The position numbers and the translations under genes were made by a program. DNA of 64,000 nt, taken from assembly GCF_053078305.1 (NCBI RefSeq), contig NZ_CP166879.1; one strand, given 5' to 3'. How positions within the stretch are numbered: the first letter of the stretch is position 1; every line of letters begins with the position of its first letter. The notes under the pieces are model-generated. The model did not search any database and was not told the origin of the DNA. It saw nothing but the letters and a program-made list of their open reading frames with translations. Positions 2,526 through 20,727 of the stretch are shown here, one piece after another.

Positions 2526-2537
2526 GGTAATAATCCC

Positions 2538-4310: not shown

Positions 4311-4825
4311 GTTCTCCCCGTATTCTGGCCTGTGTGATGCCAGTGTAAATTCATGTCAGAAAGTGTCAGCGAGAAAATTTACACCTGAAAAAGTCTGTCA
4401 TGAAACAGTTTTATGACAAGACATCAAAAAAATGTCAAAAACGTGATCTTTCTTCAGCTTTTCAGAATATTGAGTACCAGGAGTTCAATATCAATTCTGG
4501 GACACATATGCATTTACCATTAAAACCGGGCACAACAAGCTGTTCAGTCTCAATCCATACCCCGTGTTTTATCAATATCAGAATAAGAATATCTGCGGAT
4601 AAATAAAAAAGGAATGTCGAGGGAGCTTACCGCAGAGGGCTCTCCACCTCACAAGCCATTTACAAAAATGATACCGGCATATCTTTGGTCCCTGTCACAA
4701 CCAGACATTGACAATCCAATATAACCCCAAATATATTTCGGGTAAGAAGTCTGGGATTTATACAGATATACTGTCTGTTATTACTATTTAATTATATAAT
4801 TGTATTACATACATAAGAGGCACTA

Positions 4826-5215
4826 ATGAAACGTTATATAAAATGGTTTGCCATCACAATTTTTATCAGTATGTTGAGTGCCTGTGCCCGTACGGCCCCA
4901 GTGCAACAGATAAGCACCACTGTCAGTGTGGGTCATACTCAGGAGCAGGTTAAAAATGCCATTTTGAAAGCAGGTGCGCAGCGCAAGTGGATTATGACGC
5001 AAGTGTCCCCTGGAGTTATTAAAGCTCGCTATCAAACACGAAATCACGTTGCAGAGGTTCGTATTACATATACAGCTACCTACTATAACATCAAATATGA
5101 CAGTAGCCTGAATCTGCAGGCTTCTGATGGAAAAATTCATAAAAACTATAACCGCTGGGTGCGTAACCTGGATAAAGATATACAGGTTAACTTATCTACA
5201 GGAGCAACGTTATAG
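4826..5215 (+). CDS. small lipoprotein, function unknown
   Basis: 129 aa; signal peptide with lipobox (ISMLSAC); AT-rich upstream region. Confidence 0.5.
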   Translation: MKRYIKWFAITIFISMLSACARTAPVQQISTTVSVGHTQEQVKNAILKAGAQRKWIMTQVSPGVIKARYQTRNHVAEVRITYTATYYNIKYDSSLNLQASDGKIHKNYNRWVRNLDKDIQVNLSTGATL

Positions 5216-5279
5216 TGATGCTGATATCGGGCTGGAATGGCCCGATAGTATTTAACTTTCTCTATAAGAATGGTTATAT

Positions 5280-6338
5280 ATGTACGAACAGGACACGCTC
5301 AGCGCACTGGATGCCATCACCGAAGCACAGCGGATTGCCTTTGCTCCTATGCTTTTCCAGGCAGCTTTGTGCCTGCGCAATGCAGGAATATTAGATTATT
5401 TGGATCAACAGGGTAAACAGGGAGCTCCCCTTAATGCGATTACTGAGCACACAGTCCTGAATGAATATGCCGTGGGTGTGTTACTGGATATGGGCTTAAG
5501 CGGGCGAATTATTACCTGTAAAGAGGGAATTTATTACCTGGCGAAAATCGGTCATTACCTCCTGCATGACACTATGACTCGCGTGAATATGGATTTCACC
5601 CAGGATGTCTGTTACCAGGGGCTCTTCTTCCTTGCCGATTCACTCAATGAAGGAAAACCTTCCGGGTTAAAAGTATTTGGCGACTGGCCGACGATATATC
5701 CGGCACTTTCGCAATTACCAGACGCCGCACGTGATAGCTGGTTTGCGTTTGATCATTACTATTCAGATGGCGCATTTAACGCCGCACTGCCTTATGTATT
5801 CGCCAACAACCCCACAACCTTGTACGATGTGGGTGGCAATACGGGTAAGTGGGCTTTGCGCTGCTGCAAATTCAATGAAAACATCGCCGTTACGTTATTA
5901 GATCTGCCACAACAAATCGTACTGGCGAAAGAAAATATCGCGAATGCAGGTTTTTCTGATCGCATAGATTTCCATGCGGTGGATATGCTAAGCGATGCCC
6001 CATTACCAGGCGAGGCTGATATCTGGTGGATGAGCCAATTTTTAGACTGTTTTTCACCCGAACAAATAATTAGCATACTCAGCAAAATTGCCAGCGTAAT
6101 GAAGCCTGGCGCAAAACTTTGCATCATGGAGTTGTTCTGGGATGCACAGCGGTTTGAAGCGACATCGTTTAGCCTGAATGCATCCTCACTTTATTTTACC
6201 TGCATGGCAAACGGTAACAGCCGTTTCTATAGTGCAGAGAAATTTTACGACTATCTGAATAAAGCAGGATTCCAGGTAGCAGAGCGTCACGATAATTTAG
6301 GCGTTGGGCATACACTTTTGATATGCCAAAAGAAATAA
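5280..6338 (+). CDS. SAM-dependent methyltransferase (APE-cluster type)
   Basis: 352 aa; class I methyltransferase fold motif (LYDVGGNTGKWAL); first gene of a co-directional compact cluster. Confidence 0.75.
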   Translation: MYEQDTLSALDAITEAQRIAFAPMLFQAALCLRNAGILDYLDQQGKQGAPLNAITEHTVLNEYAVGVLLDMGLSGRIITCKEGIYYLAKIGHYLLHDTMTRVNMDFTQDVCYQGLFFLADSLNEGKPSGLKVFGDWPTIYPALSQLPDAARDSWFAFDHYYSDGAFNAALPYVFANNPTTLYDVGGNTGKWALRCCKFNENIAVTLLDLPQQIVLAKENIANAGFSDRIDFHAVDMLSDAPLPGEADIWWMSQFLDCFSPEQIISILSKIASVMKPGAKLCIMELFWDAQRFEATSFSLNASSLYFTCMANGNSRFYSAEKFYDYLNKAGFQVAERHDNLGVGHTLLICQKK

Positions 6339-6378
6339 TCGTCACTTAATAATTTTGGTTTACCGCGGGCGCGCGTTG

Positions 6379-7101
6379 ATGAAATTTGCATTAAATATTA
6401 CCAACTGGCAGGCACTGGCGCCTGGACTTAGCGATGTGCAGCAATGGCAAGCATGGTCGCGCCAGCCGTGGGCGATTGACCCTGCCGCGCCGTTGGCAAA
6501 ATTAAGTGAACTGCCAATGATGACCGCCCGTCGTCTCAGTTCAGGCAGCAAACTGGCTGTTGAATGCGGTCTGACAATGCTACGCCGCCATCAGCCAGAC
6601 GCTGTTTTGTATACCAGTCGTCATGGCGAACTGGAGCGCAATTACCGCATTGTTCATGCACTGGCAACCGAACAGGCGCTTTCTCCGACGGACTTCGCGC
6701 TTTCCGTACACAACTCTTCCGTGGGTAACCTGACCATTGTGGCCAAACAGCCGATCGTTTCGTCATCGCTTTCGGCTGGTCGCGACAGTTTCCAGCAAGG
6801 TTTGTGTGAAGTGCTTAGCCTGCTACAGGCGGGATACCAGCGCGTGTTGATGGTCGATTTTGATGGCTTTCTGCCTGAGTTCTATCATCCACAACTGCCC
6901 GCAGAAATGCCGACCTGGCCGTACGCCGTCGCGCTGGTGATTGAAGCTGGCGATGAGTGGCAATGTGAAACGCAGTCAGCCATTGCGGGTAATGAAACAA
7001 CACTGCCGCAAAGCATGTTGTTTTTACAGCACTATTTACAAAATGCGGACACATTTTCACTGCCTGGCGAGCGCGTACAGTGGCGCTGGAGCCGTGGATG
7101 A
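6379..7101 (+). CDS. beta-ketoacyl synthase-like chain-length-factor subunit
   Basis: About 240 aa; KS N-terminal-like domain without the full active-site set; stop overlaps the next start (ATGA). Confidence 0.65.
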   Translation: MKFALNITNWQALAPGLSDVQQWQAWSRQPWAIDPAAPLAKLSELPMMTARRLSSGSKLAVECGLTMLRRHQPDAVLYTSRHGELERNYRIVHALATEQALSPTDFALSVHNSSVGNLTIVAKQPIVSSSLSAGRDSFQQGLCEVLSLLQAGYQRVLMVDFDGFLPEFYHPQLPAEMPTWPYAVALVIEAGDEWQCETQSAIAGNETTLPQSMLFLQHYLQNADTFSLPGERVQWRWSRG

Positions 7102-7919
7102 GTAAGCTGATGTCACGTCTGGAGTGGACCTGGCGACTGGTCATGACCGGGTTATGTTTTGTCCTGTTTGGTCTCGGCGGCCTGCTGCTTTCAGTCGTGT
7201 GGTTTAACATATTGTTAGTTTTGGTGTGGGATACTTCCCGCCGCCGTCGTTTGGCACGTCGCAGCATTGCCGCCAGTTTTCGCCTGTTTTTAACTGTCGC
7301 GAAAGGGCTTGGCGTGCTGGATTATCGTATTGATGGCGCTGAAATTTTACGTCAGGAACGCGGTTGCCTCGTCGTAGCCAATCATCCCACGCTGATCGAT
7401 TACGTGCTGCTGGCATCAGTCATGCCAGAAACTGACTGCCTGGTGAAAAGCGCGCTGTTAAAAAATCCTTTTCTTGGCGGCGTCGTGCAAGCGGCAGATT
7501 ATTTAATCAACAGCGAAGCTGAAACCCTGTTACCCCGCTGCCAACAGCGACTGGCACAGGGTGACACTATCCTGATTTTCCCCGAAGGCACACGAACGAA
7601 GCCCGGTGAAAAAATGACGCTGCAGCGCGGTGCAGCGAATATTGCCGTGCGCTGCACCAGCGATTTACGCATCGTGACGATCGGCTGTAGCGAGCATCTG
7701 CTGGATAAACAAAGTAAGTGGTATGACGTCCCGCCTGCCAGGCCGTTTTTTACGGTTGAAGTCCATGGGCGGGTAGAAATCAATAAATTTTACGATGCAA
7801 CTTCACAAGAGCCGACGCTGGCTGCAAGACAGTTAAACCGGCATCTTTTGCTTCAATTACAGCAAGGTTGTTTACCTCTCTCAGGAATAAATAATGCAAG
7901 CGCTTTATCTGGAAATTAA
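7098..7919 (+). CDS. lysophospholipid / 1-acyl-glycerol-3-phosphate acyltransferase family protein
   Basis: N-terminal TM segment, HX4D-type motif (ANHPTLIDYVLL) and FPEGTR motif. Confidence 0.75.
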   Translation: MSKLMSRLEWTWRLVMTGLCFVLFGLGGLLLSVVWFNILLVLVWDTSRRRRLARRSIAASFRLFLTVAKGLGVLDYRIDGAEILRQERGCLVVANHPTLIDYVLLASVMPETDCLVKSALLKNPFLGGVVQAADYLINSEAETLLPRCQQRLAQGDTILIFPEGTRTKPGEKMTLQRGAANIAVRCTSDLRIVTIGCSEHLLDKQSKWYDVPPARPFFTVEVHGRVEINKFYDATSQEPTLAARQLNRHLLLQLQQGCLPLSGINNASALSGN

Positions 7920-8151
7920 AAACCTCATCATCAGCACCCTCAATCTGGACGACTTGACTCCTGATGATATTGATATCAATGCGCCACTGTTTGGCGACGG
8001 TTTAGGGCTGGACTCTATCGATGCACTGGAACTGGGACTGGCAGTAAAAAATGAGTACGGCATCGTGCTCTCTGCGGAAAGCGAAGAAATGCGTCAGCAC
8101 TTTTTCTCCGTCGCCACTCTGGCCTCTTTCATTGCTGCGCAACGTGCCTGA
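7894..8151 (+). CDS. acyl carrier protein
   Basis: 85 aa; phosphopantetheine attachment motif LGLDSIDALEL. Confidence 0.8.
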   Translation: MQALYLEIKNLIISTLNLDDLTPDDIDINAPLFGDGLGLDSIDALELGLAVKNEYGIVLSAESEEMRQHFFSVATLASFIAAQRA

Positions 8152-8162
8152 GGAAAACCATC

Positions 8163-8414
8163 ATGACAGACCAACAAACCATTTATCAGGAAGTCTCAGC
8201 CCTGCTGGTTAAGCTGTTTGAAATCGATCCGCAGGACATCAAACCTGAAGCGCGACTGTACGAAGATCTGGAACTGGACAGCATCGACGCCGTTGACATG
8301 ATTGTGCACCTGCAAAAGAAAACCGGTAAGAAAATCAAGCCGGAAGAGTTTAAAGCAGTGCGTACAGTCCAGGATGTTGTCGAGGCTGTAGAACGCCTGC
8401 TACAAGAAGGCTAA
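8163..8414 (+). CDS. acyl carrier protein (second copy)
   Basis: 83 aa; LELDSIDAVDM serine motif. Confidence 0.8.
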   Translation: MTDQQTIYQEVSALLVKLFEIDPQDIKPEARLYEDLELDSIDAVDMIVHLQKKTGKKIKPEEFKAVRTVQDVVEAVERLLQEG

Positions 8415-8415
8415 T

Positions 8416-9000
8416 TTGATGTCGGGCATTCGCTCGCTACCAATGATTAAGTTGCTGACCGGATTATTGCTGCTCGCCTGGCCTTTTTTAATCTGGCTAG
8501 GTTTGGTGCATAACAGCCTGCACTGGCTGTTGCCGCTGATGGCGCTGCTGCTTTTATTGCGCCTGCGCCAGCCCCGTCGCCAGACGGGGCCGCTCCAGGT
8601 CGTCACAAAAATCGTTGCTGTTGTGGGCATTGTATTGTGTGTCTCCAGTTTTCTGTTGAAAACGCACCAGTTACTGCTGTTTTACCCGGTAGTGGTTAAC
8701 GCAGTCATGCTGGCGGTTTTTGGCGGTTCGCTGCGGTCGACAATGCCGATAGTTGAGCGGCTGGCACGTTTGCAGGAGCCAGACCTCCCGGAAAAGGCCG
8801 TGCGATATACCCGCCGCGTAACGCAGGTCTGGTGCCTGTTTTTTATTTTCAATGGCAGTATTGCGTTATTTACCACCTTGTATGGCAACATGCCCTTGTG
8901 GACAGCCTGGAACGGTATCATTGCTTACCTTCTGATAGGTTTCCTGACTGCAGGGGAATGGCTGATACGTTGTCAGATGATCAAACGGAAAACACCATGA
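8416..9000 (+). CDS. integral membrane protein of the APE cluster
   Basis: 194 aa, several hydrophobic helices; stop overlaps the start of the next gene. Confidence 0.5.
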   Translation: MMSGIRSLPMIKLLTGLLLLAWPFLIWLGLVHNSLHWLLPLMALLLLLRLRQPRRQTGPLQVVTKIVAVVGIVLCVSSFLLKTHQLLLFYPVVVNAVMLAVFGGSLRSTMPIVERLARLQEPDLPEKAVRYTRRVTQVWCLFFIFNGSIALFTTLYGNMPLWTAWNGIIAYLLIGFLTAGEWLIRCQMIKRKTP

Positions 9001-10355
9001 ATCAGACTCTCTCACTTTCACAGTGGTTGACAGCCTCTCGCCCTGTAACAACTCCTGTTGCCTGGCTTGGGGAATATACCTGGACACTGGGGCATCTGCG
9101 GCATGATGTAGCGCTTTTGATCGACCATTTACGCGACCAGCCAGGCAATCGCTGGGCACTTTGTTTTGAAAACAGCTATCTTTTTATTGTAGCGTTGTTG
9201 GCCACGCTACACTCAGGTAAAATCCCGGTAATCCCGGGCCATAATCGCGCCGCTTTGTTAAATGTACAACGCTCCTTGTTTGATTGCGTCCTGAGTGATA
9301 AAAGGCTGGGCTGGAACGGTCCACAGTTTGTTGTAAGCACATCTCACCAGATGACGACCAGCACGATAGCCTTTGATGATATTGCTTCTGATGCGTTTAT
9401 TGAACTTTTCACATCGGGTTCAACCGGACAACCAAAACAAATTGCAAAACCTGTTATCAGCCTTGATCAAGAAGCAAACATGCTGGCAACTCACTTTGCA
9501 GACCGACTACTGGGCTGTCGTTTTGTAGCATCCGTGATGCCTCAGCACCTGTATGGGCTGACTTTCCGTATTTTTTTACCCATGGCACTTGGCCTGCCAT
9601 TGCATGCCGCAATGCTCTGGTATTCTGAGCAACTTGCCGCATTAAGCCATACCTACCGCTATGCCTTTGTCAGCAGCCCGGCGTTCCTTAAGCGACTCGA
9701 CCTTCATCTGACGCCTCCCCCAGTGGAAATGATTCTCTCTGCCGGCGGTATGCTACCATGGCAGGATGTAGAGAAAACTTCCACCTGGCTGAATATATGG
9801 CCCGATGAAATCTATGGTAGTACCGAAACAGGTATTCTCGCATGGCGTTACCGTCAACAGGATAATATCCCCTGGTTTACTTTTTCTGATGTTCATCTTT
9901 CACAGGAAAGTGAGGGGGTTCGTGTCTTTTCGCCACTAATCCCTGCTGAAGGATTGGTGCTTGACGATATGTTGCAATTCAATGAAAACGGTCAGTTCCA
10001 CCTGATCGGACGACGTGGTCGAGTGGTAAAAATAGAGGAGAAGCGGATATCACTGGTTGAAATCGAACAACGACTTCTGGCACTTGACGGTATTATGGAT
10101 GTCGCTGCAATACCATTAATACGCAATGGCCGCCAGGCTATCGGTGTCGTGGTTGTACCAAATAAAGAGGCCCGTCAAATATGGCAATGCTCCGGAGGGA
10201 AAACTCTGGAGTTGTCCTGGCGCAAAGCACTATTACCATGGCTTGAACCTGTTGCAGTACCTCGTTACTGGCGCATTATTGATGAAATACCAGTAAACAA
10301 TATGAATAAGCGTGTCTATGCGCAATTACAGGAGTTATTTCATGATACGCCATGA
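8997..10355 (+). CDS. AMP-dependent synthetase/ligase (acyl-ACP/CoA synthetase-like)
   Basis: Adenylation-domain motifs (FTSGSTGQPK; YGSTETG). Start taken at ATG 8997 (MNQTLSL); the ORF-track start at 8832 overlaps the upstream gene. Confidence 0.8.
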   Translation: MNQTLSLSQWLTASRPVTTPVAWLGEYTWTLGHLRHDVALLIDHLRDQPGNRWALCFENSYLFIVALLATLHSGKIPVIPGHNRAALLNVQRSLFDCVLSDKRLGWNGPQFVVSTSHQMTTSTIAFDDIASDAFIELFTSGSTGQPKQIAKPVISLDQEANMLATHFADRLLGCRFVASVMPQHLYGLTFRIFLPMALGLPLHAAMLWYSEQLAALSHTYRYAFVSSPAFLKRLDLHLTPPPVEMILSAGGMLPWQDVEKTSTWLNIWPDEIYGSTETGILAWRYRQQDNIPWFTFSDVHLSQESEGVRVFSPLIPAEGLVLDDMLQFNENGQFHLIGRRGRVVKIEEKRISLVEIEQRLLALDGIMDVAAIPLIRNGRQAIGVVVVPNKEARQIWQCSGGKTLELSWRKALLPWLEPVAVPRYWRIIDEIPVNNMNKRVYAQLQELFHDTP

Positions 10356-10695
10356 AATTGAGCGCCATCTGGTTCAACCGCAGGAGATGGAAATCGTTCT
10401 ATACCTTGACCCGATGCTCTACTGGTTTAATGGTCATTTTGCCGTACAGCCTCTGTTACCAGGCGTGGCCCAATTGGACTGGGTAATGCATTATGCTACC
10501 ACGCTGCTTGCTCCGGGCTGGCGTTTTCGTAGTATCCAGAATGTTAAATTTCTGGCGCCACTTATACCTGAGACGACTGTTACCCTGCAATTAACATGGC
10601 AGGAAACAAGTCAGGTACTCACTTTCTGCTATCAGCGTCACGACGGTGACGCCCGCCACACCGCCAGTAGCGGGAAGATCCGCCTATGTCGGTAA
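10342..10695 (+). CDS. hotdog-fold dehydratase (FabA/FabZ-like)
   Basis: About 117 aa from ATG 10342 (MIRHEIERH); small hotdog-like protein; overlaps the previous stop. Confidence 0.6.
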   Translation: MIRHEIERHLVQPQEMEIVLYLDPMLYWFNGHFAVQPLLPGVAQLDWVMHYATTLLAPGWRFRSIQNVKFLAPLIPETTVTLQLTWQETSQVLTFCYQRHDGDARHTASSGKIRLCR

Positions 10696-12362
10696 ACTTT
10701 TCTCCCTGCGTGTTGATACCCTGCTACAACCACGGCGCGATGATGCCGGGCGTGCTGGCGCGTCTTAAGCCATTTAATCTGCCCTGTATTGTGGTGGATG
10801 ACGGCAGCGATGCCACCACACAACAGCAACTGGACAGTCTGCTTGCCGAACAGCCTGGCGTGACCTTAATTCGCCTGGCAGAAAACGCAGGCAAAGGCGC
10901 GGCGGTGATGCGTGGCTTACAGGCAGCGGCAGACGCAGGGTTCAGCCATGCGGTGCAGGTGGATGCTGACGGTCAGCACGCGATTGAAGATATCCCTAAA
11001 CTGCTGGCACTCGCTGAACAACAACCTGCGGCACTGATCTCCGGCCAGCCAATTTACGATGACTCCATCCCCCGCTCACGGCTTTACGGGCGCTGGGTCA
11101 CCCACGTTTGGGTATGGATCGAAACGCTCTCCCTGCAACTGAAAGACAGCATGTGCGGCTTTCGCGTTTATCCGGTTGCGCCAACGCTGCAACTGGCAAA
11201 ACACGCCACCATCGGCAAGCGGATGGATTTCGACACTGAAGTGATGGTGCGCCTCTACTGGCAGGGAAACACCAGCTATTTCGTGCCGACCCGCGTCACC
11301 TATCCACTGGACGGGCTTTCGCATTTTGATGCCCTGAAAGATAACGTCCGCATCTCGCTCATGCACACGCGTCTGTTTTTCGGCATGTTACCGCGTATTC
11401 CTTCACTGCTGATGCGCCGCTCTTCCAGCCACTGGGCGCGGCAGAGTGAAGTGAAAGGATTATGGGGAATGCGCCTGATGCTGCTTGTCTGGCGTCTGCT
11501 GGGAAGAACGGCGTTTAGCGCGCTGCTTTACCCGGTGGTGGGCGTCTACTGGCTCACTGCTTCTCGTGCGCGCAAAGCGTCGCAAGACTGGCTCGCCCGT
11601 GTACGACAGCATCAACCACAGGCGGCAAAACTCAACAGCTATCAGCACTTTCTGCGTTTCGGTAATGCCATGCTCGACAAAATCGCCAGCTGGCGCGGCG
11701 AGCTACAACTGGGGCGTGATGTGCTGTTTGCGCCAGGCGCAGAAGCGGCGCTTGACGTCCGCGATCCGCGCGGCAAATTGCTGCTGGCCTCGCATCTTGG
11801 CGATGTGGAAGTGTGCCGGGCGCTGGCAAAAATTCAGGGCTACAAAACCATTAACGCGCTGGTGTTTAGCGAAAACGCCCAACGCTTTAAACAGATAATG
11901 CAGGAGATGGCTCCTCAGGCAGGCATTAACCTGATGCCGGTAACAGATATCGGCCCAGAAACCGCCATCCTGCTGAAAGAGAAGCTGAATAACGGCGAAT
12001 GGGTGGCGATTGTCGGTGACCGCATCGCCGTCACCCCGCAACGCGGCGGCGACTGGCGCGTCTGCTGGAGTCCGTTTATGGGCCAGCCTGCGCCCTTCCC
12101 ACAGGGGCCGTTTATTCTCGCCTCTATTTTGCGCTGCCCAGTGAATCTGATTTTCGCCCTACGCCAGCACGGCAAGCTGCATATTCACTGCGAAACCTTT
12201 GCCGACCCGCTGCTGTTGCCGCGTGGCGAACGCCAACAGGCGCTGCAAAACGCTATCGACCACTACGCCGCGCGTCTGGAACATTACGCGCTCCAGTCGC
12301 CCCTCGACTGGTTTAATTTTTTCGATTTCTGGCAACTGCCGGAAATTCAGGACAAGGAGTAA
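10686..12362 (+). CDS. bifunctional glycosyltransferase family 2 / lipid-A-type acyltransferase
   Basis: 558 aa; N-terminal GT2 signature (LIPCYNHG...VVDDGSDA) and C-terminal LpxL/HtrB-like acyltransferase region. Confidence 0.7.
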   Translation: MSVNFSPCVLIPCYNHGAMMPGVLARLKPFNLPCIVVDDGSDATTQQQLDSLLAEQPGVTLIRLAENAGKGAAVMRGLQAAADAGFSHAVQVDADGQHAIEDIPKLLALAEQQPAALISGQPIYDDSIPRSRLYGRWVTHVWVWIETLSLQLKDSMCGFRVYPVAPTLQLAKHATIGKRMDFDTEVMVRLYWQGNTSYFVPTRVTYPLDGLSHFDALKDNVRISLMHTRLFFGMLPRIPSLLMRRSSSHWARQSEVKGLWGMRLMLLVWRLLGRTAFSALLYPVVGVYWLTASRARKASQDWLARVRQHQPQAAKLNSYQHFLRFGNAMLDKIASWRGELQLGRDVLFAPGAEAALDVRDPRGKLLLASHLGDVEVCRALAKIQGYKTINALVFSENAQRFKQIMQEMAPQAGINLMPVTDIGPETAILLKEKLNNGEWVAIVGDRIAVTPQRGGDWRVCWSPFMGQPAPFPQGPFILASILRCPVNLIFALRQHGKLHIHCETFADPLLLPRGERQQALQNAIDHYAARLEHYALQSPLDWFNFFDFWQLPEIQDKE

Positions 12363-12365
12363 AGG

Positions 12366-12788
12366 GTGCTTAACGATCCCCGATTTACCGCTGAAGTCGA
12401 GCTGACCATTCCCTTTCACGACGTCGATATGATGGGCGTGGCCTGGCACGGTAACTATTTTCGCTACTTTGAAGTGGCCCGCGAGGCGCTGCTCAACCAG
12501 TTCAATTACGGCTATCGGCAGATGAAAGAGTCCGGTTATTTGTGGCCAGTGGTCGATGCGCGGGTGAAATATCGCCACGCCCTCACCTTTGAGCAACGCA
12601 TCCGCGTGCGTGCGCATATCGAAGAGTTCGAAAACCGTCTGCGGATTGGCTATCAGATTTTCGATGCCGAAACGGGCAAACGCGCCACCACCGGATACAC
12701 CATTCAGGTCGCGGTCGACGAGCAAAGCCGCGAACTGTGCTTTGTCAGCCCCGATATTCTGTTTGAACGCATGGGAGTCAAATCATGA
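12366..12788 (+). CDS. acyl-CoA/ACP thioesterase (4-hydroxybenzoyl-CoA thioesterase/YbgC-like hotdog)
   Basis: 140 aa; GTG start; HDVDMMGVAWHGNYFRYFE motif. Confidence 0.7.
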   Translation: MLNDPRFTAEVELTIPFHDVDMMGVAWHGNYFRYFEVAREALLNQFNYGYRQMKESGYLWPVVDARVKYRHALTFEQRIRVRAHIEEFENRLRIGYQIFDAETGKRATTGYTIQVAVDEQSRELCFVSPDILFERMGVKS

Positions 12789-13390
12789 AATTTTTACCGC
12801 TGCTGGCGCTGCTGATTAGCCCGTTTGTGAGCGCCCTGAGCCTGGACGATCTTCAGCAACGCTTTACCGAACAGCCGGTGATCCGCGCCCATTTCGATCA
12901 AACCCGGACGATTAAAGATCTGCCGCAGCCGCTGCGATCTCAGGGCCAGATGTTGATCGCCCGCGACCAGGGGCTGTTGTGGGATCAAACCTCACCGTTC
13001 CCCATGCAACTATTACTGGACGATAAACGCATGGTGCAGGTGATCAACGGTCAGCCGCCGCAAATCATCACGGCAGAAAACAACCCGCAGATGTTCCAGT
13101 TTAACCACCTGCTGCGCGCGCTGTTCCAGGCCGATCGCAAAGTGCTGGAACAAAACTTCCGCGTCGAATTTGCTGACAAAGGCGAAGGCCGCTGGACGCT
13201 GCGCCTGACGCCGACCACCACGCCGCTGGATAAAATTTTCAACACCATCGATCTCGCCGGGAAAACCTATCTGGAGAGCATTCAACTTAATGATAAACAG
13301 GGCGATCGCACCGATATTGCTCTTACCCAACATCAACTGACGCCAGCGCAACTGACCGATGACGAACGCCAACGTTTTGCCGCCCAGTAA
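12785..13390 (+). CDS. LolA-like outer-membrane lipoprotein carrier family protein
   Basis: 201 aa with signal peptide; 4-bp overlap with the previous gene. Confidence 0.65.
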   Translation: MKFLPLLALLISPFVSALSLDDLQQRFTEQPVIRAHFDQTRTIKDLPQPLRSQGQMLIARDQGLLWDQTSPFPMQLLLDDKRMVQVINGQPPQIITAENNPQMFQFNHLLRALFQADRKVLEQNFRVEFADKGEGRWTLRLTPTTTPLDKIFNTIDLAGKTYLESIQLNDKQGDRTDIALTQHQLTPAQLTDDERQRFAAQ

Positions 13391-15677
13391 ACGCCCCGCG
13401 CTGTTATGGGGGCTAGTCTGCCTGGTCATGGCGGCGGCGTTGCTGATCCTGCTGCCGCAATCACGGCTGAACAGTAGCGTGCTGGCTATGTTACCCAAAC
13501 AGGCGATGGGCGATATTCCCCCAGCGCTGAATGACGGCTTTATGCAGCGTCTGGACCGCCAACTGGTGTGGCTGGTCAGCCCCGGTAAAGAGGCTAATCC
13601 CAGGGTCGCTCAGGAGTGGCTGACGCTGCTGCAAAAATCCGCTGCGCTCGGCGACGTTAAAGGACCAATGGATGCCGCCAGCCAGCAAGCGTGGGGAGCG
13701 TTTTTCTGGCAGCACCGCAACGGCCTGATTGACCCCGACACCCGCGCCCGCCTGCAAAACGGTGGCGAAGCGCAGGCGCAGTGGATCCTCTCCCAGCTTT
13801 ATTCCGCATTCTCCGGGGTAAGCGGCAAGGAGCTGCAAAACGATCCGCTGATGTTAATGCGCGGCTCGCAGCTGGCGATGGCGAAAAACGGCCAGCGTTT
13901 GCGGCTGATGGACGGCTGGCTGGTGACGCAGGATCCCCAGGGCAACTACTGGTATCTGCTGCACGGTGAACTGGCGGGATCGTCGTTTGATATGCAGCAA
14001 ACCCACCAGCTCATCACGACCCTGAATACGCTGGAAAAGGATCTGAAAACGCGTTACCCACAGGCGCAGTTGCTCTCGCGCGGCACGGTATTTTACAGCG
14101 ATTACGCCAGTCAACAGGCGAAGCAGGATATCTCAACCCTGGGCGTGGCAACGCTGCTGGGGGTGATATTGCTGATTGTGGCGGTGTTCCGCTCTTTACG
14201 CCCGTTGCTACTTTGCGTGATTTCCATCGGCATCGGCGCACTGGCAGGAACGGTCGCCACATTGTTGATTTTCGGCGAATTACACCTGATGACGCTGGTG
14301 ATGAGCATGAGCGTTATTGGCATTTCCGCTGACTACACGCTCTATTACCTCACCGAACGAATGGTGCACGGCAACGACGTTTCACCGTGGCAAAGCCTGG
14401 CGAAAGTGCGCAATGCCCTGCTGCTGGCGCTGCTCACCACCGTGGCGGCGTATCTGATTATGATGCTCGCCCCCTTCCCCGGCATTCGCCAGATGGCGAT
14501 TTTTGCCGCCGTCGGGTTGAGCGCCTCCTGTCTGACCGTCCTGTTCTGGCATCCGTGGCTGTGCCGTGGCCTGCCGGTGCGTCCGGTTCCGGCGATGGCG
14601 CTGATGCTACGCTGGCTGGCAGCGTGGCGGCGCAATAAAAAACTGTCGCGGGGTCTGCCCGTCGTGCTGGCGCTGTTTTCGCTGGCGGGGATGTCAATGC
14701 TGCGCGTCGATGACGATATCTCGCAGTTACAGGCGCTACCGCAGCATATTCTGGCCCAGGAGAAAGCCATCACCGCTCTGACCGGGCAGAGCGTCGATCA
14801 AAAATGGTTCGTGGTTTACGGCGACTCCCCACAGCAAACATTGCGGCGACTGGAGAAATTTACCACCTCGCTGGAGAATGCGAAAAAAGAGGGGCTTATC
14901 AGCAACTACCGCACCATTCCGCTGAACTCCCTGGCGCGGCAGGAGGAAGATTTACATCTGCTGACAACAGCGGCCCCGACAGTAACAAAAGCACTGCAAA
15001 ATGCCGGGCTGACAACAGTGAACCCGGATCTCAACGCCATGCCAGTGAACGTTGATGAATGGCTGGCAAGCCCCGCCAGTGAAGGCTGGCGTCTGCTGTG
15101 GCTGACGCTGGAAAATGGCGCAAGCAGCGTGCTGGTGCCGGTTGAAGGGGTTAAAAATAGCGCGGCGCTACAGGAAATCTCCAGCTATTACCCTTGTGGC
15201 ATTGCCTGGGTTGATCGCAAAAACACCTTTGATGAATTGTTCGCACTTTACCGTTATGTGTTAACCGGCTTGTTGCTGGTGGCGTTGGCAGTAATTGCCT
15301 GCGGCGCAGTGGCCCGCCTCGGCTGGCGAAAAGGGTTTATCAGCCTTGTACCTTCGGTGCTTTCGCTGGGTTGTGGTCTGGCGGTGCTGGCGATGAGCGG
15401 GCAGGCGGTGAATCTCTTTTCGCTGCTGGCGCTGGTGCTGGTGCTTGGCATCGGCATCAACTACACGCTGTTTTTCAGTAATCCGCGCGGCACACCATTA
15501 ACTTCGCTACTGGCGATCACGCTGGCAATGCTCACCACCTTGCTGACGCTGGGAATGCTGGTATTCAGCGCCACCCAGGCCATCAGCAGTTTTGGCATTG
15601 TGCTGGTGAGCGGTATTTTCACCGCCTTCCTGCTTTCGCCGCTGGCGATGCCCGATAAAAAGAGAACAAAAAAATGA
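13359..15677 (+). CDS. MMPL/RND-superfamily exporter
   Basis: 772 aa; two blocks of TM helices separated by periplasmic domains. Confidence 0.8.
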   Translation: MTNANVLPPSKRPALLWGLVCLVMAAALLILLPQSRLNSSVLAMLPKQAMGDIPPALNDGFMQRLDRQLVWLVSPGKEANPRVAQEWLTLLQKSAALGDVKGPMDAASQQAWGAFFWQHRNGLIDPDTRARLQNGGEAQAQWILSQLYSAFSGVSGKELQNDPLMLMRGSQLAMAKNGQRLRLMDGWLVTQDPQGNYWYLLHGELAGSSFDMQQTHQLITTLNTLEKDLKTRYPQAQLLSRGTVFYSDYASQQAKQDISTLGVATLLGVILLIVAVFRSLRPLLLCVISIGIGALAGTVATLLIFGELHLMTLVMSMSVIGISADYTLYYLTERMVHGNDVSPWQSLAKVRNALLLALLTTVAAYLIMMLAPFPGIRQMAIFAAVGLSASCLTVLFWHPWLCRGLPVRPVPAMALMLRWLAAWRRNKKLSRGLPVVLALFSLAGMSMLRVDDDISQLQALPQHILAQEKAITALTGQSVDQKWFVVYGDSPQQTLRRLEKFTTSLENAKKEGLISNYRTIPLNSLARQEEDLHLLTTAAPTVTKALQNAGLTTVNPDLNAMPVNVDEWLASPASEGWRLLWLTLENGASSVLVPVEGVKNSAALQEISSYYPCGIAWVDRKNTFDELFALYRYVLTGLLLVALAVIACGAVARLGWRKGFISLVPSVLSLGCGLAVLAMSGQAVNLFSLLALVLVLGIGINYTLFFSNPRGTPLTSLLAITLAMLTTLLTLGMLVFSATQAISSFGIVLVSGIFTAFLLSPLAMPDKKRTKK

Positions 15678-16258
15678 TCAAACCTACCTTCTGGCGAGCG
15701 CTCGCCCTGACCGCTACGCTTATCCTCACCGGCTGTAGCCACTCGCAACCGGAACAGGAAGGCCGCCCGCAGGCGTGGCTGCAACCTGGCACGCGCATCA
15801 CGCTGCCGGCACCAGGGATTTCACCCGCCGTCAATTCCCAGCAACTGTTGACCGGCAGCTTCAACGGCAAAACCCAGTCGCTGTTAGTGATGCTTAACGC
15901 CGACGACCAGAAAATCACCCTTGCCGGGCTGTCGTCGGTCGGCATTCGCCTGTTTCTGGTGACCTACGATGCAAAAGGGCTACGCGCCGAGCAATCCATC
16001 GTCGTCCCACAGTTGCCGCCCGCAAGTCAGGTTCTGGCTGACGTAATGCTCAGCCACTGGCCGATTAGCGCCTGGCAACCGCAACTTCCCGCTGGCTGGA
16101 CACTTCGCGACAACGGTGACAAACGCGAACTGCGTAACGCCAGCGGCAAACTGGTCACGGAAATCACCTATCTGAATCGCCAGGGAAAACGCGTGCCAAT
16201 CAGCATTGAGCAGCATGTCTTTAAATACCACATCACCATTCAATACTTAGGTGACTGA
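15674..16258 (+). CDS. lipoprotein, DUF3261-like
   Basis: 194 aa; lipobox LTGCS; translationally coupled to flanking genes. Confidence 0.55.
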   Translation: MIKPTFWRALALTATLILTGCSHSQPEQEGRPQAWLQPGTRITLPAPGISPAVNSQQLLTGSFNGKTQSLLVMLNADDQKITLAGLSSVGIRLFLVTYDAKGLRAEQSIVVPQLPPASQVLADVMLSHWPISAWQPQLPAGWTLRDNGDKRELRNASGKLVTEITYLNRQGKRVPISIEQHVFKYHITIQYLGD

Positions 16259-17429
16259 TATGATTTATATTTCCGCCGTCGGCATGATCAACGCCCTGGG
16301 AAATAACCTTGACGAAATCGCAGCCAACCTAGCTCGCGGTGTCGCCCCCGGAATGCGCCCACGCGCAGGCTGGTTGCAGGGGCATCCGCAGGCGGTCCTG
16401 GCTGGCGTGGATGGCGAGCTTCCGCTTATCCCGGAAAAATTCGCTGCGCATCGCTCGCGCAACAATCAGATCCTGCTGGCGGCGCTGGCGCAGCTCCAGC
16501 CGCAGGTTGATGACGCTATAGCGAAATATGGTCGCGAGCGCATCGCGATTGTACTTGGCACCAGCACCTCCGGCCTGCATGAAGGCGACACGCACGTTAA
16601 CCTACGCACCCACGGGCAGCCGAGCACCACATGGCACTACGCGCAACAGGAACTCGGCGATCCGTCGCGTTTTCTCAGCCACTGGCTGGCGCTCGACGGC
16701 CCGGCCTATACCCTTTCAACCGCCTGCTCTTCCAGCGCCAGAGCGATAATCAGCGGGCGCAGGCTTATCGAAGCGGGGCTGGTCGATGCCGCCATTGTGG
16801 GTGGTGCAGACACCCTGAGCCGGATGCCGATTAACGGTTTTCACAGCCTCGAATCGCTGTCGCCAACCTTATGTCAGCCGTTTGGTCGTGACCGCGCAGG
16901 TATCACCATTGGTGAAGGGGCGGGGCTAATGCTGCTGACCCGGGAACCGCAGCCCATCGCGTTGCTGGGCGTTGGTGAATCGAGCGACGCTTACCATATT
17001 TCAGCCCCGCATCCGCAGGGCGAAGGAGCGATCCGCGCTATTAATCAGGCGCTGACCGATGCGCAGCTTACGCCGGATGACGTCGGCTATATCAACCTGC
17101 ACGGCACCGCCACACAGCTCAACGACCAGATTGAATCAATGGTGGTTAACGCCCTGTTTGGCGAACGCGTACCGTGCAGCTCCACCAAACATTTGACCGG
17201 ACACACGCTGGGCGCAGCGGGCATTACCGAGGCGGCAATTAGTATGTTGATTTTACAGCGTGATTTACCGCTGCCCGCTCAGGACTTCAGCCTGTCGCCG
17301 CGCGATCCCACGCTGCCACCGTGTGGCATTATCGAAAAACCGCAGCCGCTGGCACGTCCGGTGATCCTGTCCAATTCCTTCGCCTTTGGCGGCAATAACG
17401 CCAGCATTCTGCTCGGGAGGGTTTCGTGA
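16251..17429 (+). CDS. beta-ketoacyl-ACP synthase
   Basis: 392 aa; KS active-site Cys context (STACSSS) and His/His motifs (NLHGTAT; GHTLGAAG). Confidence 0.8.
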   Translation: MTDMIYISAVGMINALGNNLDEIAANLARGVAPGMRPRAGWLQGHPQAVLAGVDGELPLIPEKFAAHRSRNNQILLAALAQLQPQVDDAIAKYGRERIAIVLGTSTSGLHEGDTHVNLRTHGQPSTTWHYAQQELGDPSRFLSHWLALDGPAYTLSTACSSSARAIISGRRLIEAGLVDAAIVGGADTLSRMPINGFHSLESLSPTLCQPFGRDRAGITIGEGAGLMLLTREPQPIALLGVGESSDAYHISAPHPQGEGAIRAINQALTDAQLTPDDVGYINLHGTATQLNDQIESMVVNALFGERVPCSSTKHLTGHTLGAAGITEAAISMLILQRDLPLPAQDFSLSPRDPTLPPCGIIEKPQPLARPVILSNSFAFGGNNASILLGRVS

Positions 17430-17890
17430 GCCACTATTTATCCCCCGGCGCTTATCTGCCCCACGACGCGCCCATGTTACTGCTGGAAGACGTGGTGAGC
17501 GTCAGCGATGACAGCGCGGTGTGCCGCGTGACGGTTTCGCCCAGTGGCGTACTGGCACCGTTTCTCGACCCGGACGGCAATCTCCCTGGCTGGTTTGCCC
17601 TTGAACTGATGGCGCAAACCGTCGGCGTCTGGTCTGGCTGGCATCGCCACCAGCAGGGCAAAAACAGTATTGAGTTAGGGATGATACTGGGCGCGCGTGA
17701 ATTGCTTTGCGCCGCTGGCATTCTGCCCGCAGGCCAGACGCTGACCATTACCGTCAAACTGCTGATGCAGGACGATCGCTTCGGCAGTTTTGAGTGCAGC
17801 ATCAACGACGGCGAGGCGACGGGCCGCATTAACACCTTCCAGCCGACCGCGGAAGAACTTACCACCCTGTTTCAACAAGGAGCGTCCTGA
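17426..17890 (+). CDS. hotdog-fold dehydratase (FabA/FabZ-like)
   Basis: 154 aa; overlapping start/stop with neighbours. Confidence 0.65.
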   Translation: MSHYLSPGAYLPHDAPMLLLEDVVSVSDDSAVCRVTVSPSGVLAPFLDPDGNLPGWFALELMAQTVGVWSGWHRHQQGKNSIELGMILGARELLCAAGILPAGQTLTITVKLLMQDDRFGSFECSINDGEATGRINTFQPTAEELTTLFQQGAS

Positions 17891-18621
17891 TGAGTCGTTC
17901 AGTTCTGGTTACTGGTGCCAGCAAAGGCATTGGTCGCGCCATCGCCTGCCAACTGGCGGCAGACGGCTTTAACATTGGCGTTCACTATCACCGTGACGCC
18001 ACAGGCGCTCAGGAAACGCTGAATGCCATTGTCGCCAACGGGGGTAACGGGCGTTTGCTCAGTTTCGACGTCGCAAACCGCGAACAGTGTCGGGAAGTGC
18101 TGGAGCATGAGATCGCGCAACACGGTGCCTGGTACGGCGTGGTCAGTAACGCCGGGATCGCCCGCGATGCCGCTTTTCCGGCTTTAAGCGATGACGACTG
18201 GGATGCGGTGATCCACACCAATCTCGACAGTTTCTACAACGTCATTCAGCCGTGCATTATGCCAATGATCGGCGCGCGCCAGGGTGGGCGCATCATCACG
18301 CTGTCCTCGGTTTCCGGCGTAATGGGCAATCGCGGCCAGGTGAATTACAGCGCTGCCAAAGCCGGAATTATCGGCGCAACAAAAGCGCTGGCTATCGAAC
18401 TCGCAAAGCGCAAAATCACCGTCAATTGCATCGCGCCAGGGCTTATTGATACCGGGATGATCGAAATGGAAGAGAGCGCTCTGAAAGAGGCAATGTCGAT
18501 GATCCCCATGAAACGTATGGGCCAGGCGGAAGAAGTTGCCGGGCTTGCCAGTTATTTAATGTCTGATATTGCGGGTTACGTCACCCGCCAGGTTATTTCC
18601 ATCAACGGAGGGATGTTATGA
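17890..18621 (+). CDS. 3-oxoacyl-ACP reductase (FabG-like SDR)
   Basis: 243 aa; TGASKGIGRAIA Rossmann motif and YSAAK catalytic motif. Confidence 0.85.
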   Translation: MSRSVLVTGASKGIGRAIACQLAADGFNIGVHYHRDATGAQETLNAIVANGGNGRLLSFDVANREQCREVLEHEIAQHGAWYGVVSNAGIARDAAFPALSDDDWDAVIHTNLDSFYNVIQPCIMPMIGARQGGRIITLSSVSGVMGNRGQVNYSAAKAGIIGATKALAIELAKRKITVNCIAPGLIDTGMIEMEESALKEAMSMIPMKRMGQAEEVAGLASYLMSDIAGYVTRQVISINGGML

Positions 18622-19847
18622 CACGTCGCGTAGTGATTACAGGAATGGGTGGCGTGACTGCCTTTGGTGAAAACTGGCAGGACGTTTCTGCACGCTTACT
18701 GGCGTATGAAAATGCGGTGCGCAAAATGCCGGAGTGGCAGGTCTACGACGGGCTGCACACCCTGCTTGGCGCGCCTGTTGATGATTTCACGCTACCGGAG
18801 CACTACACCCGCAAGCGTATCCGTGCGATGGGCCGCGTGTCGCAAATGTCGACCCGTGCCAGCGAGCTGGCGTTAGAGCAGGCAGGGTTGATTGGCGATC
18901 CGATATTAACCAGCGGCGAAACGGGCATTGCGTACGGTTCATCGACCGGCAGTACCGGCCCGGTAAGCGAGTTCGCCACCATGCTGACGGAAAAGCACAC
19001 CAATAACATCACTGGCACCACCTATGTGCAGATGATGCCGCACACCACCGCCGTTAATACTGGCCTCTTTTTCGGCCTGCGCGGGCGGGTGATCCCAACC
19101 TCCAGCGCCTGTACTTCCGGCAGCCAGGCAATCGGTTATGCGTGGGAAGCCATTCGCCACGGTTATCAAACGGTGATGGTTGCTGGTGGTGCCGAAGAGT
19201 TATGTCCTTCAGAAGCAGCGGTATTTGATACGCTTTTCGCCACCAGCCAGCACAATGATGCGCCGAAAACCACACCTTCACCGTTCGATGAAAACCGCGA
19301 CGGGCTGGTGATTGGTGAAGGCGCAGGTACGCTCATTCTCGAAGAACTGGAGCACGCCAAAGCGCGCGGCGCGACCATTTACGGTGAAATCGTCGGCTTT
19401 GCGACTAACTGCGACGCGGCACATATTACCCAGCCGCAGCGCGAAACCATGCAGTATTGTATGGAGCAATCGCTGAAAATCGCCGGGTTAAGCGCACAAG
19501 ATATCGGCTATATTTCAGCGCATGGTACGGCGACCGATCGCGGTGATATGGCAGAAAGTCTGGCGACAGCAACCATTTACGGTGATAATGTGCCGCTCTC
19601 CTCGCTGAAAAGTTATTTTGGTCATACGCTTGGTGCCTGTGGCGCGCTCGAAGCCTGGATGAGTCTGCAAATGATGCGCGAAGGTTGGTTTGCGCCTACG
19701 CTAAACCTGAATAAACCAGACCCGAACTGTGGCGCGCTGGATTACATCATGCATGAAGCCCGAAAGGTTGATTGTGAGTTTTTGCAGAGTAACAACTTTG
19801 CCTTTGGCGGCATTAATACATCCATCATCATTAAGCGCTGGCCCTGA
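18618..19847 (+). CDS. beta-ketoacyl-ACP synthase II (FabF-like)
   Basis: 409 aa; KS Cys context (SSACTSG), HGTAT and GHTLGACG motifs; last gene of the cluster. Confidence 0.85.
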   Translation: MTRRVVITGMGGVTAFGENWQDVSARLLAYENAVRKMPEWQVYDGLHTLLGAPVDDFTLPEHYTRKRIRAMGRVSQMSTRASELALEQAGLIGDPILTSGETGIAYGSSTGSTGPVSEFATMLTEKHTNNITGTTYVQMMPHTTAVNTGLFFGLRGRVIPTSSACTSGSQAIGYAWEAIRHGYQTVMVAGGAEELCPSEAAVFDTLFATSQHNDAPKTTPSPFDENRDGLVIGEGAGTLILEELEHAKARGATIYGEIVGFATNCDAAHITQPQRETMQYCMEQSLKIAGLSAQDIGYISAHGTATDRGDMAESLATATIYGDNVPLSSLKSYFGHTLGACGALEAWMSLQMMREGWFAPTLNLNKPDPNCGALDYIMHEARKVDCEFLQSNNFAFGGINTSIIIKRWP

Positions 19848-19856
19848 GTTATACAA

Positions 19857-19885
19857 CCACATGGACATCCCATGTGGTGATTCTT
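19857..19885 (+). terminator. candidate intrinsic terminator after the APE cluster
   Basis: Perfect 8-bp stem CCACATGG / CCATGTGG with 5-nt loop, followed by a T-rich tail, 10 bp after the stop of the last cluster gene. Confidence 0.35.
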
Positions 19886-20157
19886 CAAAAAATCTGAATC
19901 AATGAATATGAACCTCATCCACATTCAACCATTCTTTTGTTTACCATCTGGTTGTCGCCCCCCCTCCAAAAAGCAAATTCTCTTACGCATACTGGAGAGT
20001 ATTCCGTATAAAGATTCAGCTGGCAAAACTTTATCAGTCTGTAAAAACTAACGGAAGAGTCGATATTTCTCCCGTCCATCACCGGATGATTGTTGCAATA
20101 ACCCATAGCATCAGAGACTGAACAGCAGTTTTTAAAGCAACGTATTGCTCTGATGTA

Positions 20158-20583
20158 TCAGGCTGGGCAACCCGAAAAAAAACTTTCCACCCGACATTGT
20201 CCGCTAGCACTTATCACCCGCCAGGTCTGTTGCAGTAAATCCACCAGTTGTGAACATGCTTCATCACCTGTCACACTGGCTCGCGGATGGCAAATGCTCG
20301 TCTGGCTGAGCAGCAACAGGCATCGTATTGTTGCTCCTCCATGTAGTTGTTCCCGCAACCAGCGTAATACCAGCGGCGATGATGGACTGGTCGTGTGATT
20401 ACGCTCAGTAATACGTTCATAAAAGGAAGTACAGAATGCATGAATCTGTTGCCCGTTGATATTTCCTTCTGCCGAATGGAGTGTGAAGTGGACTGCCAGC
20501 AGATGCGTCCAGTGGTCCACCGCCTGCTGAACAAAACGCCGGATGTCTCCCTGCTCTGAAAATAACGCTTCGGTTATTTGCAC
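20158..20583 (-). CDS. hypothetical protein (orphan ORF at the junction between the APE cluster and the garD remnant)
   Basis: 141-aa ORF, no family recognised; may be a gene remnant. Confidence 0.25.
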   Translation of the reverse strand: MQITEALFSEQGDIRRFVQQAVDHWTHLLAVHFTLHSAEGNINGQQIHAFCTSFYERITERNHTTSPSSPLVLRWLREQLHGGATIRCLLLLSQTSICHPRASVTGDEACSQLVDLLQQTWRVISASGQCRVESFFSGCPA

Positions 20584-20727
20584 GAAATACTACTCCTTCA
20601 GACTCTGTTAAGTTTTGTTTGTTAAATCGGTGCAGACCTGCAGGAAAGCACGCAAGCACCGGCACAGTACGATATAAACATCCGGTACCGGGGATACGAA
20701 TGGAATGACGAATACGCCAGAAAAGGG

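Follow-up and report, generated by a model that had tools for sequence, protein, structure and literature searches.

The stretch of DNA analysed here (the window) comprises 64,000 nucleotides of contig NZ_CP166879.1 from NCBI RefSeq assembly GCF_053078305.1, and at positions 4826-19847 it carries 18 co-oriented open reading frames (ORFs) on the + strand. These almost certainly constitute an intact apeA-apeR aryl polyene (APE) cluster, APE_Ec, in the island-borne version of uropathogenic Escherichia coli CFT073; its product is a yellow lipid pigment of the outer membrane. The CFT073 counterpart (NC_004431, 1143727-1158748) consists of the same 18 genes (c1186-c1204, named apeR-apeA), and the two align over 15,022 bp with zero indels and 98.36% identity; alignment to E. 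coli H22 likewise spans 15,022 bp with zero indels, at 99.01% identity. All 18 genes are equal in length to their CFT073 and H22 counterparts and none has an internal stop, and against CFT073 the nucleotide identity per gene is 97.0-100%, with 0-15 amino acid changes per protein (n = 18). An earlier, sequence-only reading had proposed a complete aryl polyene cluster of 17 genes at 5280-19847. Comparison with the characterised CFT073 cluster, 98.4% identical and free of indels, bears out the proposal as to type. The interval does hold exactly 17 intact co-oriented ORFs, but the cluster has 18, apeA having been left out. Two findings had been named that would refute an APE cluster, namely frameshifts and best matches outside APE loci, in some other lipid pathway. 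Neither was observed: closer alignment revealed zero indels and zero internal stops, and the locus matches APE_Ec of CFT073.

Megablast of 5280-19847 against 5,426 complete E. coli genomes found the cluster in 841, with at least 80% coverage in 820, and all of these copies are chromosomal. The top match was H22 (99.0%, in one ungapped piece), whose RefSeq annotation shows the same 17 genes and, immediately upstream, a 129-aa hypothetical protein. Among GTDB species representatives, an exact conserved 26-mer of apeO was present only in Escherichia sp. E1V33 (96.5% identical). The APE core set, as used in Fig. 1 of bioRxiv 10.1101/2020.12.19.423268, is all present, namely ketosynthases (KS; apeO and apeR), acyl carrier proteins (ACP; apeE and apeF), chain-length factor (CLF; apeC), dehydratases (apeI and apeP), ketoreductase (apeQ) and transporter (apeM). 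The features of the E. coli APE_Ec of CFT073-island type were found as well: colinear apeA-R, a CFT073-type apeA, the flank on the cdiBA side and no acpT downstream. For six genes, starts transferred from RefSeq replace mechanical ORF starts that were too early (apeC 6379, apeD 7098, apeG 8419, apeH 8997, apeI 10342 and apeO 16260).

The chemistry of the cluster can be followed through its enzymes, every one of which carries catalytic motifs. ApeH (8997-10355; this and all ape genes below lie on the + strand) is a predicted adenylate-forming enzyme that would transfer 4-hydroxybenzoate to an ACP (motifs TSGSTGQPK and YGSTE). Its best family was 4-coumarate-CoA ligase TIGR02372 (4e-21, below cut-off), it has one amino acid change relative to CFT073, and for the homologue of Xenorhabdus doucetiae both the substrate and ACP loading have been demonstrated, as cited in PMC8253772. 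The two ACP genes stand in tandem, each product having a phosphopantetheine-attachment serine in a DSID motif: ApeE (7894-8151) has Ser41 in GLDSID and scores 89.5 bits with NF006617 (cut-off 70), and ApeF (8163-8414) has Ser40 in LDSID and scores 146.6 bits with NF003757 (cut-off 65). Both genes are 100% identical to CFT073 in nucleotide sequence. Methylation of the aryl head group falls to ApeB (5280-6338), an S-adenosylmethionine (SAM)-dependent methyltransferase with a DVGGNTG motif (SAM motif I) and one amino acid change from CFT073; its match to the FlxJ-family methyltransferase model NF053543 (1e-141; 472 bits) stays under the equivalog cut-off, which is 560.

Two ketosynthases and a chain-length factor are encoded. 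ApeO (16260-17429) is the elongating ketosynthase, with Cys156, His281 and His315; it scores 557 bits with NF006618 (cut-off 407) and matches PDB entries 6qsp_A (8e-175) and 7f28_B (3e-82). Its partner ApeC (6379-7101) is a KS-like protein (Pfam Ketoacyl-synt_2 PF13723, 8.5e-67; PDB 6qsp_B, 3.5e-92, and 7f28_A, 3e-15) that does not have the Cys/His/His catalytic residues: a search of ApeC for KS catalytic motifs found none, as expected for a CLF. The second ketosynthase, ApeR (18618-19847), has Cys165, His302 and His336, scores 778 bits with NF006587 (cut-off 470) and matches PDB 7f27_A (5e-158). Reduction and dehydration are assigned to ApeQ (17890-18621), a 3-ketoacyl-ACP reductase FabG2 with the short-chain dehydrogenase/reductase motifs TGASKGIG, SNAG and YSAAK (FabG2 equivalog TIGR01831, 476 bits against a cut-off of 339; PDB 4iiu, 1e-154, and 7czc, 1e-115), and to two hotdog dehydratase subunits, ApeI (10342-10695; FabZ-like, motif HFAVQPLLPG of the HFxxxPxxPG form, protein identical to CFT073) and its partner ApeP (17426-17890; PDB 6qsr_B, 1.9e-47), both with weak matches to FabZ. 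We take PDB 6QSP and 6QSR to be the Ape heterocomplexes from X. doucetiae described by Grammbitter et al. 2019. Entries 7F27 and 7F28 come from the study of A. baumannii ApeR and ApeO-ApeC structures (PMC8358021), and in vitro work on X. doucetiae, as cited in PMC8253772, makes ApeR the initiating ketosynthase. The KS/CLF pair that had been reported at this locus is thus present in ApeO and ApeC, but its genes are not adjacent (apeC 6379-7101, apeO 16260-17429): what follows apeC is the acyltransferase gene apeD rather than a ketosynthase gene, and apeO lies 9 kb downstream. The separated CLF/KS arrangement has also been remarked on in the literature (PMC8253772).

The remaining genes would serve chain release, lipid assembly and transport. 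ApeK (12366-12788) is a hotdog thioesterase of YbgC/4HBT type with one amino acid change from CFT073 (TIGR00051, 1e-16, and MenI-like, 3e-21, both below cut-off). ApeD (7098-7919) is a lysophospholipid acyltransferase of PlsC type, with an HX4D motif (HPTLID at residue 96), an FPEGT motif and a TIGR00530 domain (2e-15). ApeL (12785-13390) is a LolA-like periplasmic carrier with a signal peptide (LolA TIGR00547, 1.5e-16; LolA2_flexi, 9e-15), and ApeM (13359-15677) is an RND/MMPL-family exporter of 772 aa, named 'MMPL family transporter' in RefSeq and matching the HAE3, HpnN and MMPL families at 1e-13 to 2e-7. ApeN (15674-16258) is a DUF3261 lipoprotein (Pfam, 6.6e-39; lipobox LTGC) described as LolB-like. 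ApeG (8419-9000) is a hydrophobic membrane protein of 193 aa with four amino acid changes from CFT073; its name and position are those of Table 1 in PMC8253772, and the literature lists it as COG4648. ApeA (4826-5215), encoded upstream of the start given in the sequence-only reading, is a 129-aa lipoprotein with lipobox LSAC at residues 17-20, and it too appears in Table 1 of PMC8253772. It shows one amino acid change relative to CFT073 c1204, none relative to H22, and 66% amino acid identity to the lipoprotein ECs_4324 of strain Sakai. Deletion of apeA in CFT073 left pigmentation in place, with immature products (PMC8253772).

ApeJ (10686-12362) combines two domains. The N-terminal one (aa 8-130) is a GT2 glycosyltransferase with DDGS and DADG motifs; the C-terminal one (aa ~241-558) is of LpxM/PatA acyltransferase type, with a predicted catalytic His370 in HLGDVE and GDR at 444. 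Single-sequence Pfam and PDB searches with residues 241-558 gave no match, and the domain was resolved afterwards by a profile and a structure model. In a search of 1.84 billion representative proteins, 3,041 homologues of the C-terminal half turned up with E values of 0.001 or less, some as stand-alone proteins of about 310-330 aa and others joined to a GT2 domain. A profile of 71 sequences (alignment A1), in which His130, Asp205 and Arg206 are invariant, matched LpxM 5KN7 (3e-7), in an alignment that brings the HX4E motif together, and PatA (5e-3); Lip_A_acyltrans (PF03279) is matched by 60 of the 71 homologues. The domain thus shows the LPLAT/LpxL-type fold and the HX4(D/E) motif, at a sequence identity of just 12-14% to PatA (the mycobacterial phosphatidylinositol mannoside acyltransferase) and LpxM (the lipid A secondary acyltransferase), and in contrast to both it is fused to a GT2 domain. 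These profile and family matches confirm the GT2/acyltransferase fusion suspected from the sequence. The independent fold-level support from the profile and the model for assigning the C-terminal half as a PatA/LpxM-type glycolipid acyltransferase is the one small addition of the present analysis. Such an activity fits the published proposal that N-acetylgalactosamine (GalNAc) is added first and the aryl polyene then esterified onto it, the proposed acyl donor being the ACP-bound aryl polyene (bioRxiv 10.1101/2020.12.19.423268).

The pathway has been worked out in CFT073 and X. doucetiae and is transferred to the window on the strength of near-identity. The 18-gene, 15.5-kb cluster of CFT073, dissected by in-frame deletions, is sufficient for pigment formation in E. 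coli Top10 (PMC8253772), and is also the APE cluster of Cimermancic 2014, as cited in PMC8253772 (Johnston 2021). The X. doucetiae lipid is built on a glycerol-phosphate-GalNAc backbone, with the aryl polyene bound to the sugar as an ester; it also carries one saturated acyl chain and a conjugated one of C26:5. Its aryl polyene moiety equals the CFT073 hydrolysis product, a 4-hydroxy-3-methylphenyl hexaene (bioRxiv 10.1101/2020.12.19.423268). By analogy, ApeH in the window would adenylate 4-hydroxybenzoate, supplied by UbiC from outside the cluster, and load it directly onto ApeE or ApeF with no CoA intermediate, both ACPs requiring the phosphopantetheinyl transferase (PPTase) AcpT, encoded outside the window. 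ApeR would initiate, and the ApeO:ApeC heterocomplex would elongate with malonyl units, the ketone being reduced by ApeQ and dehydration carried out by ApeI:ApeP in each round to give a conjugated hexaene. ApeB would methylate the phenol ring, and ApeK probably acts as a releasing or editing thioesterase. ApeD and the two-domain ApeJ would build the membrane lipid and attach the chromophore, and ApeM, ApeL, ApeN, ApeG and ApeA would export the product and assemble it into the outer membrane. The roles of ApeD, ApeJ, ApeM, ApeL, ApeN and ApeG are proposals of bioRxiv 10.1101/2020.12.19.423268. The pigment lipid would protect against oxidative stress and promote biofilm formation; protection against reactive oxygen species and thicker biofilms have been reported for APE (PMC8253772). 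From the 98.4% identity to the CFT073 cluster, the product of which has been identified, we infer that the product here is likewise a cell-bound aryl polyene pigment.

The genes are tightly packed, with overlapping start and stop codons, as the sequence-only reading had observed: overlaps of 1-32 nt occur at 11 of the 17 junctions, and the remaining six are gaps of 1-64 nt. Upstream, the 515-bp spacer between apeA and the divergent cdiB (37% G+C) contains a sigma-70-like promoter candidate at 4708-4737 (+), TTGACA-18-TATATT, which agrees with the consensus at 11 of 12 positions in the scan, lies about 90 nt upstream of apeA and is identical in H22 and CFT073. Nine nucleotides past the apeR stop is a hairpin (19856-19878, +) with a 9-bp stem and a 5-nt loop, possibly a non-canonical terminator. 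It folds at -14.8 to -17 kcal/mol (z = -3.0), with just 2 of 200 shuffles folding as well, and it is conserved 100% in CFT073 and H22. The operon had been proposed to end at a hairpin at 19857. The structure at that position is real and conserved, but no canonical U tract follows it and it is absent from the list produced by a consensus terminator scan. Terminator-like and promoter-like sites in the region showed no excess over shuffled sequence, and Rfam at gathering thresholds gave no RNA family inside or adjoining the cluster.

Whether these signals delimit a single operon bears on how the genes are expressed. Division into several transcription units, for instance apeA alone followed by apeB-R, in place of one operon running to the hairpin, is possible if on balance doubtful. 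A 64-nt gap separates apeA from apeB, a promoter-like site matching 9 of 12 consensus positions lies at 5187-5216, another gap of 40 nt precedes apeC, the X. doucetiae cluster has been treated as apeB-R (bioRxiv 10.1101/2020.12.19.423268), and the authors of PMC8253772 speak of 'one or multiple polycistronic mRNAs'. Against such a division, promoter-like sites are no commoner than in shuffled sequence (18 found, 13.6 +/- 3.7 expected), and the 11 overlapping junctions out of 17 fit translational coupling along a single long transcript. A further question is whether the cluster, though intact, is cryptic or non-productive in its host, either because it is silent in most conditions or because it makes no holo-ACPs, being detached from acpT. 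The case for this comes from strain Sakai, where acpT begins 2 nt after apeR and the homology of the window ends exactly at the apeR stop, from the finding that no AcpT-like ORF lies within the 64 kb, and from expression, the X. doucetiae cluster being silent in the laboratory (bioRxiv 10.1101/2020.12.19.423268) and native CFT073 expression being modest and condition-dependent (literature). However, the island of CFT073 is arranged in the same way and the cluster on it gives pigment in Top10, so a PPTase acting in trans suffices (PMC8253772); all 18 genes of the window remain open while their neighbours decay, which argues for purifying selection; and ape transcripts and several operon proteins have been detected in CFT073 (literature). 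We regard a cryptic cluster as improbable. Expression is described as higher at 37 C and in the presence of chronic H2O2 (literature). Tblastn with AcpT gave no match in the window, so that the ACPs must be activated in trans, as in CFT073; AcpT is noted in PMC8253772 to activate the ApeE/ApeF homologues of O157:H7.

That the locus belongs to a different pathway altogether, of flexirubin/xanthomonadin type, for a polyunsaturated fatty acid, or a spare type II fatty acid synthase, is vanishingly improbable. The flexirubin and xanthomonadin clusters of Bacteroidota and Xanthomonas do resemble the window cluster in their type II polyketide synthase-like core, a methyltransferase, and LolA-like and RND export proteins, and there are sub-threshold matches to flexirubin models (FlxJ methyltransferase, 472 against a cut-off of 560 bits; FlxB, 266 against 340; LolA2_flexi, 55 against 125), as well as matches to generic FabF, FabG and FabZ models. 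Every flexirubin equivalog score nevertheless falls below its cut-off, so that FlxJ, FlxB and LolA2 equivalog level is not reached, and the window cluster, unlike those of flexirubin type, has neither darA nor darB: no gene for dialkylresorcinol synthesis by DarA/DarB was found, the sole DarB signal being a 22-bit match inside ApeR. Matches to PfaA were weak and partial, and the cluster is 98.4% identical to one for which chemical analysis showed the product to be an aryl polyene. The flexirubin, polyunsaturated fatty acid and spare fatty acid synthase candidates were accordingly rejected on the family cut-offs and the identity to CFT073.

No observation contradicts the assignment to APE_Ec, though it has its limits. 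Relative to CFT073 there are 55 amino acid substitutions in total, including 15 in ApeJ and 12 in ApeM. ApeA and ApeG matched no family in the Pfam and NCBIfam scans, their roles coming from proposals in the literature, and the lipid anchor has been solved in X. doucetiae, not in E. coli. Neither acpT nor ubiC lies in the window. The hairpin tail, GAUUCUUC, has U at 4 of the 8 nt after the stem, short of a canonical U tract, and both the promoter at 4708-4737 and the terminator at 19856-19878 are candidates predicted from the sequence. Even so, the assignment to an intact APE_Ec cluster of the CFT073 island type stands as almost certain.

The genomic neighbourhood is shared with the CFT073 island over 4126-31107 of the window, and by virtue of the cluster the window can be recognised as belonging to a CFT073-like (serX-type) pathogenicity island, one that carries an oxidative-stress/biofilm fitness factor. 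On the upstream side, divergent from apeA, is a contact-dependent inhibition locus (1-4310, -), whose cdiA runs off the start of the window and whose cdiB (2538-4310, -; 590 aa) is intact; the cdi counterparts in CFT073 are truncated or frameshifted pseudogenes. Downstream, the garD, DeoR-regulator, aldolase and phosphotransferase system (PTS) genes at ~20.7-23.9 kb are fragmented in the window, and the syntenic copies in CFT073 are annotated as frameshifted or partial pseudogenes. The contrast between an intact cluster and decayed sugar genes, drawn earlier from the sequence, thus holds, and it is already a feature of CFT073; being shared, the decay predates the divergence of the strains. Remnants common to both within 19848-24000 are a hypothetical ORF (20158-20583, -), garD fragments (~20746-22081, +), a split DeoR regulator (22144-22715, -) and a truncated tagatose-bisphosphate aldolase subunit (22964-23587, +). 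The repeats detected in 4000-21000 were all short chance matches, none of them marking an island boundary, and no tRNA was found in the window.

Beyond the region syntenic with CFT073, window 31107-56000 is mosaic in composition: none of the complete E. coli genomes contains 31-56 kb in one piece, the best coverage being 28%. Here a Dcu C4-dicarboxylate transporter (37164-38462, -) accompanies a second aspA-like ammonia-lyase (35527-36927, -), with identity to E. coli islands of only about 89%; an IS110 transposase (42229-43281, -) and a YadA-like/LuxR-regulator segment are also present. Two matches to the STnc100 small RNA (RF02076) stand in tandem at 48148-48350 (-) and 48610-48798 (-), 260 nt apart, scoring 137 and 98 bits where the gathering score is 47. 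Towards the end of the window is an ORF of 2,357 aa (55798-62871, -) with an antisense shadow ORF of 1,844 aa, in a region whose strand skew is extreme (GC skew -0.29, AT skew -0.45), flanked by 53770-55698 (-) and 63156-63947 (-). It has no NCBIfam match at 1e-10; its RefSeq relatives are named 'GA-like domain-containing protein' and adjoin a HlyD-type type I secretion adaptor, and among complete E. coli genomes the nearest relative of almost full length has only about 79% identity and lies on a plasmid. Adjoining this ORF is a PueAB-like esterase of 642 aa with RTX repeats (1e-99, below cut-off).

The version of the cluster in O157:H7 Sakai (ECs_4324-4341) has the same apeA-R order, with about 92% nucleotide identity over window 4883-19847, and differs in its setting: it occupies a chromosomal site flanked by yhhT and acpT, and acpT, the PPTase gene, begins 2 nt past the end of apeR. 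Homology of the window to Sakai ends at 19847, the apeR stop codon, and the hairpin at 19856-19878 marks that end. Divergence between the two is uneven: in the apeG-apeH block (window 8419-10355, Sakai L003 6334-8273) there are 201-360 differences per kb, as against 10-111 elsewhere. Together with the 66% identity of ApeA, this suggests that the starter-activating module was replaced in one of the E. coli APE lineages. The differences between the window and CFT073 are likewise clustered in blocks, and one block in apeR (window 18280-19280) differs at 10 positions per kb from the O157-type allele and at 36 per kb from CFT073, a pattern that indicates ordinary recombinational mosaicism between island and chromosomal versions of the cluster. 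It is a long shot that the island copy is a recombinant of two E. coli APE lineages and that the loci differ in starter use or product. The thought of differing starters or products arises because the lineages differ most in apeG and apeH, at the starter-activating step, where nucleotide divergence is 20-36% as opposed to about 1-8% in the remainder of the alignment; the window has a CFT073-type apeH, for which the product is known, so this reading concerns the diversity of E. coli APE and not the present locus.

Aryl polyenes are the most widespread family of biosynthetic gene clusters in Gram-negative bacteria, and the cluster described here is a textbook example; both it and its genomic context are already known, and at the level of the locus nothing is new. 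With a CFT073-like cluster in about 15% of complete E. coli genomes, it has small value as a discovery and is useful as annotation. The X. doucetiae cluster (apeB-R), an orthologue in another genus, shares its enzyme set and proposed chemistry with the window cluster; it differs in being silent unless a promoter is inserted, and X. doucetiae is the sole organism in which the full lipid structure is known. The closest of the known systems is that of CFT073, which has the same 18 genes in the same order and at the same lengths, with the same hairpin and promoter-like site. Its flanks are also alike, with cdiB and cdiA upstream and, downstream, the decayed garD, DeoR, aldolase and PTS genes followed by MalY and an enterotoxin gene. 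It differs from the window in the 55 amino acid substitutions, clustered in apeC, apeJ, apeM/N and apeQ/R, in having cdiB as a pseudogene where the window copy is intact, and in island content past window position 31107.

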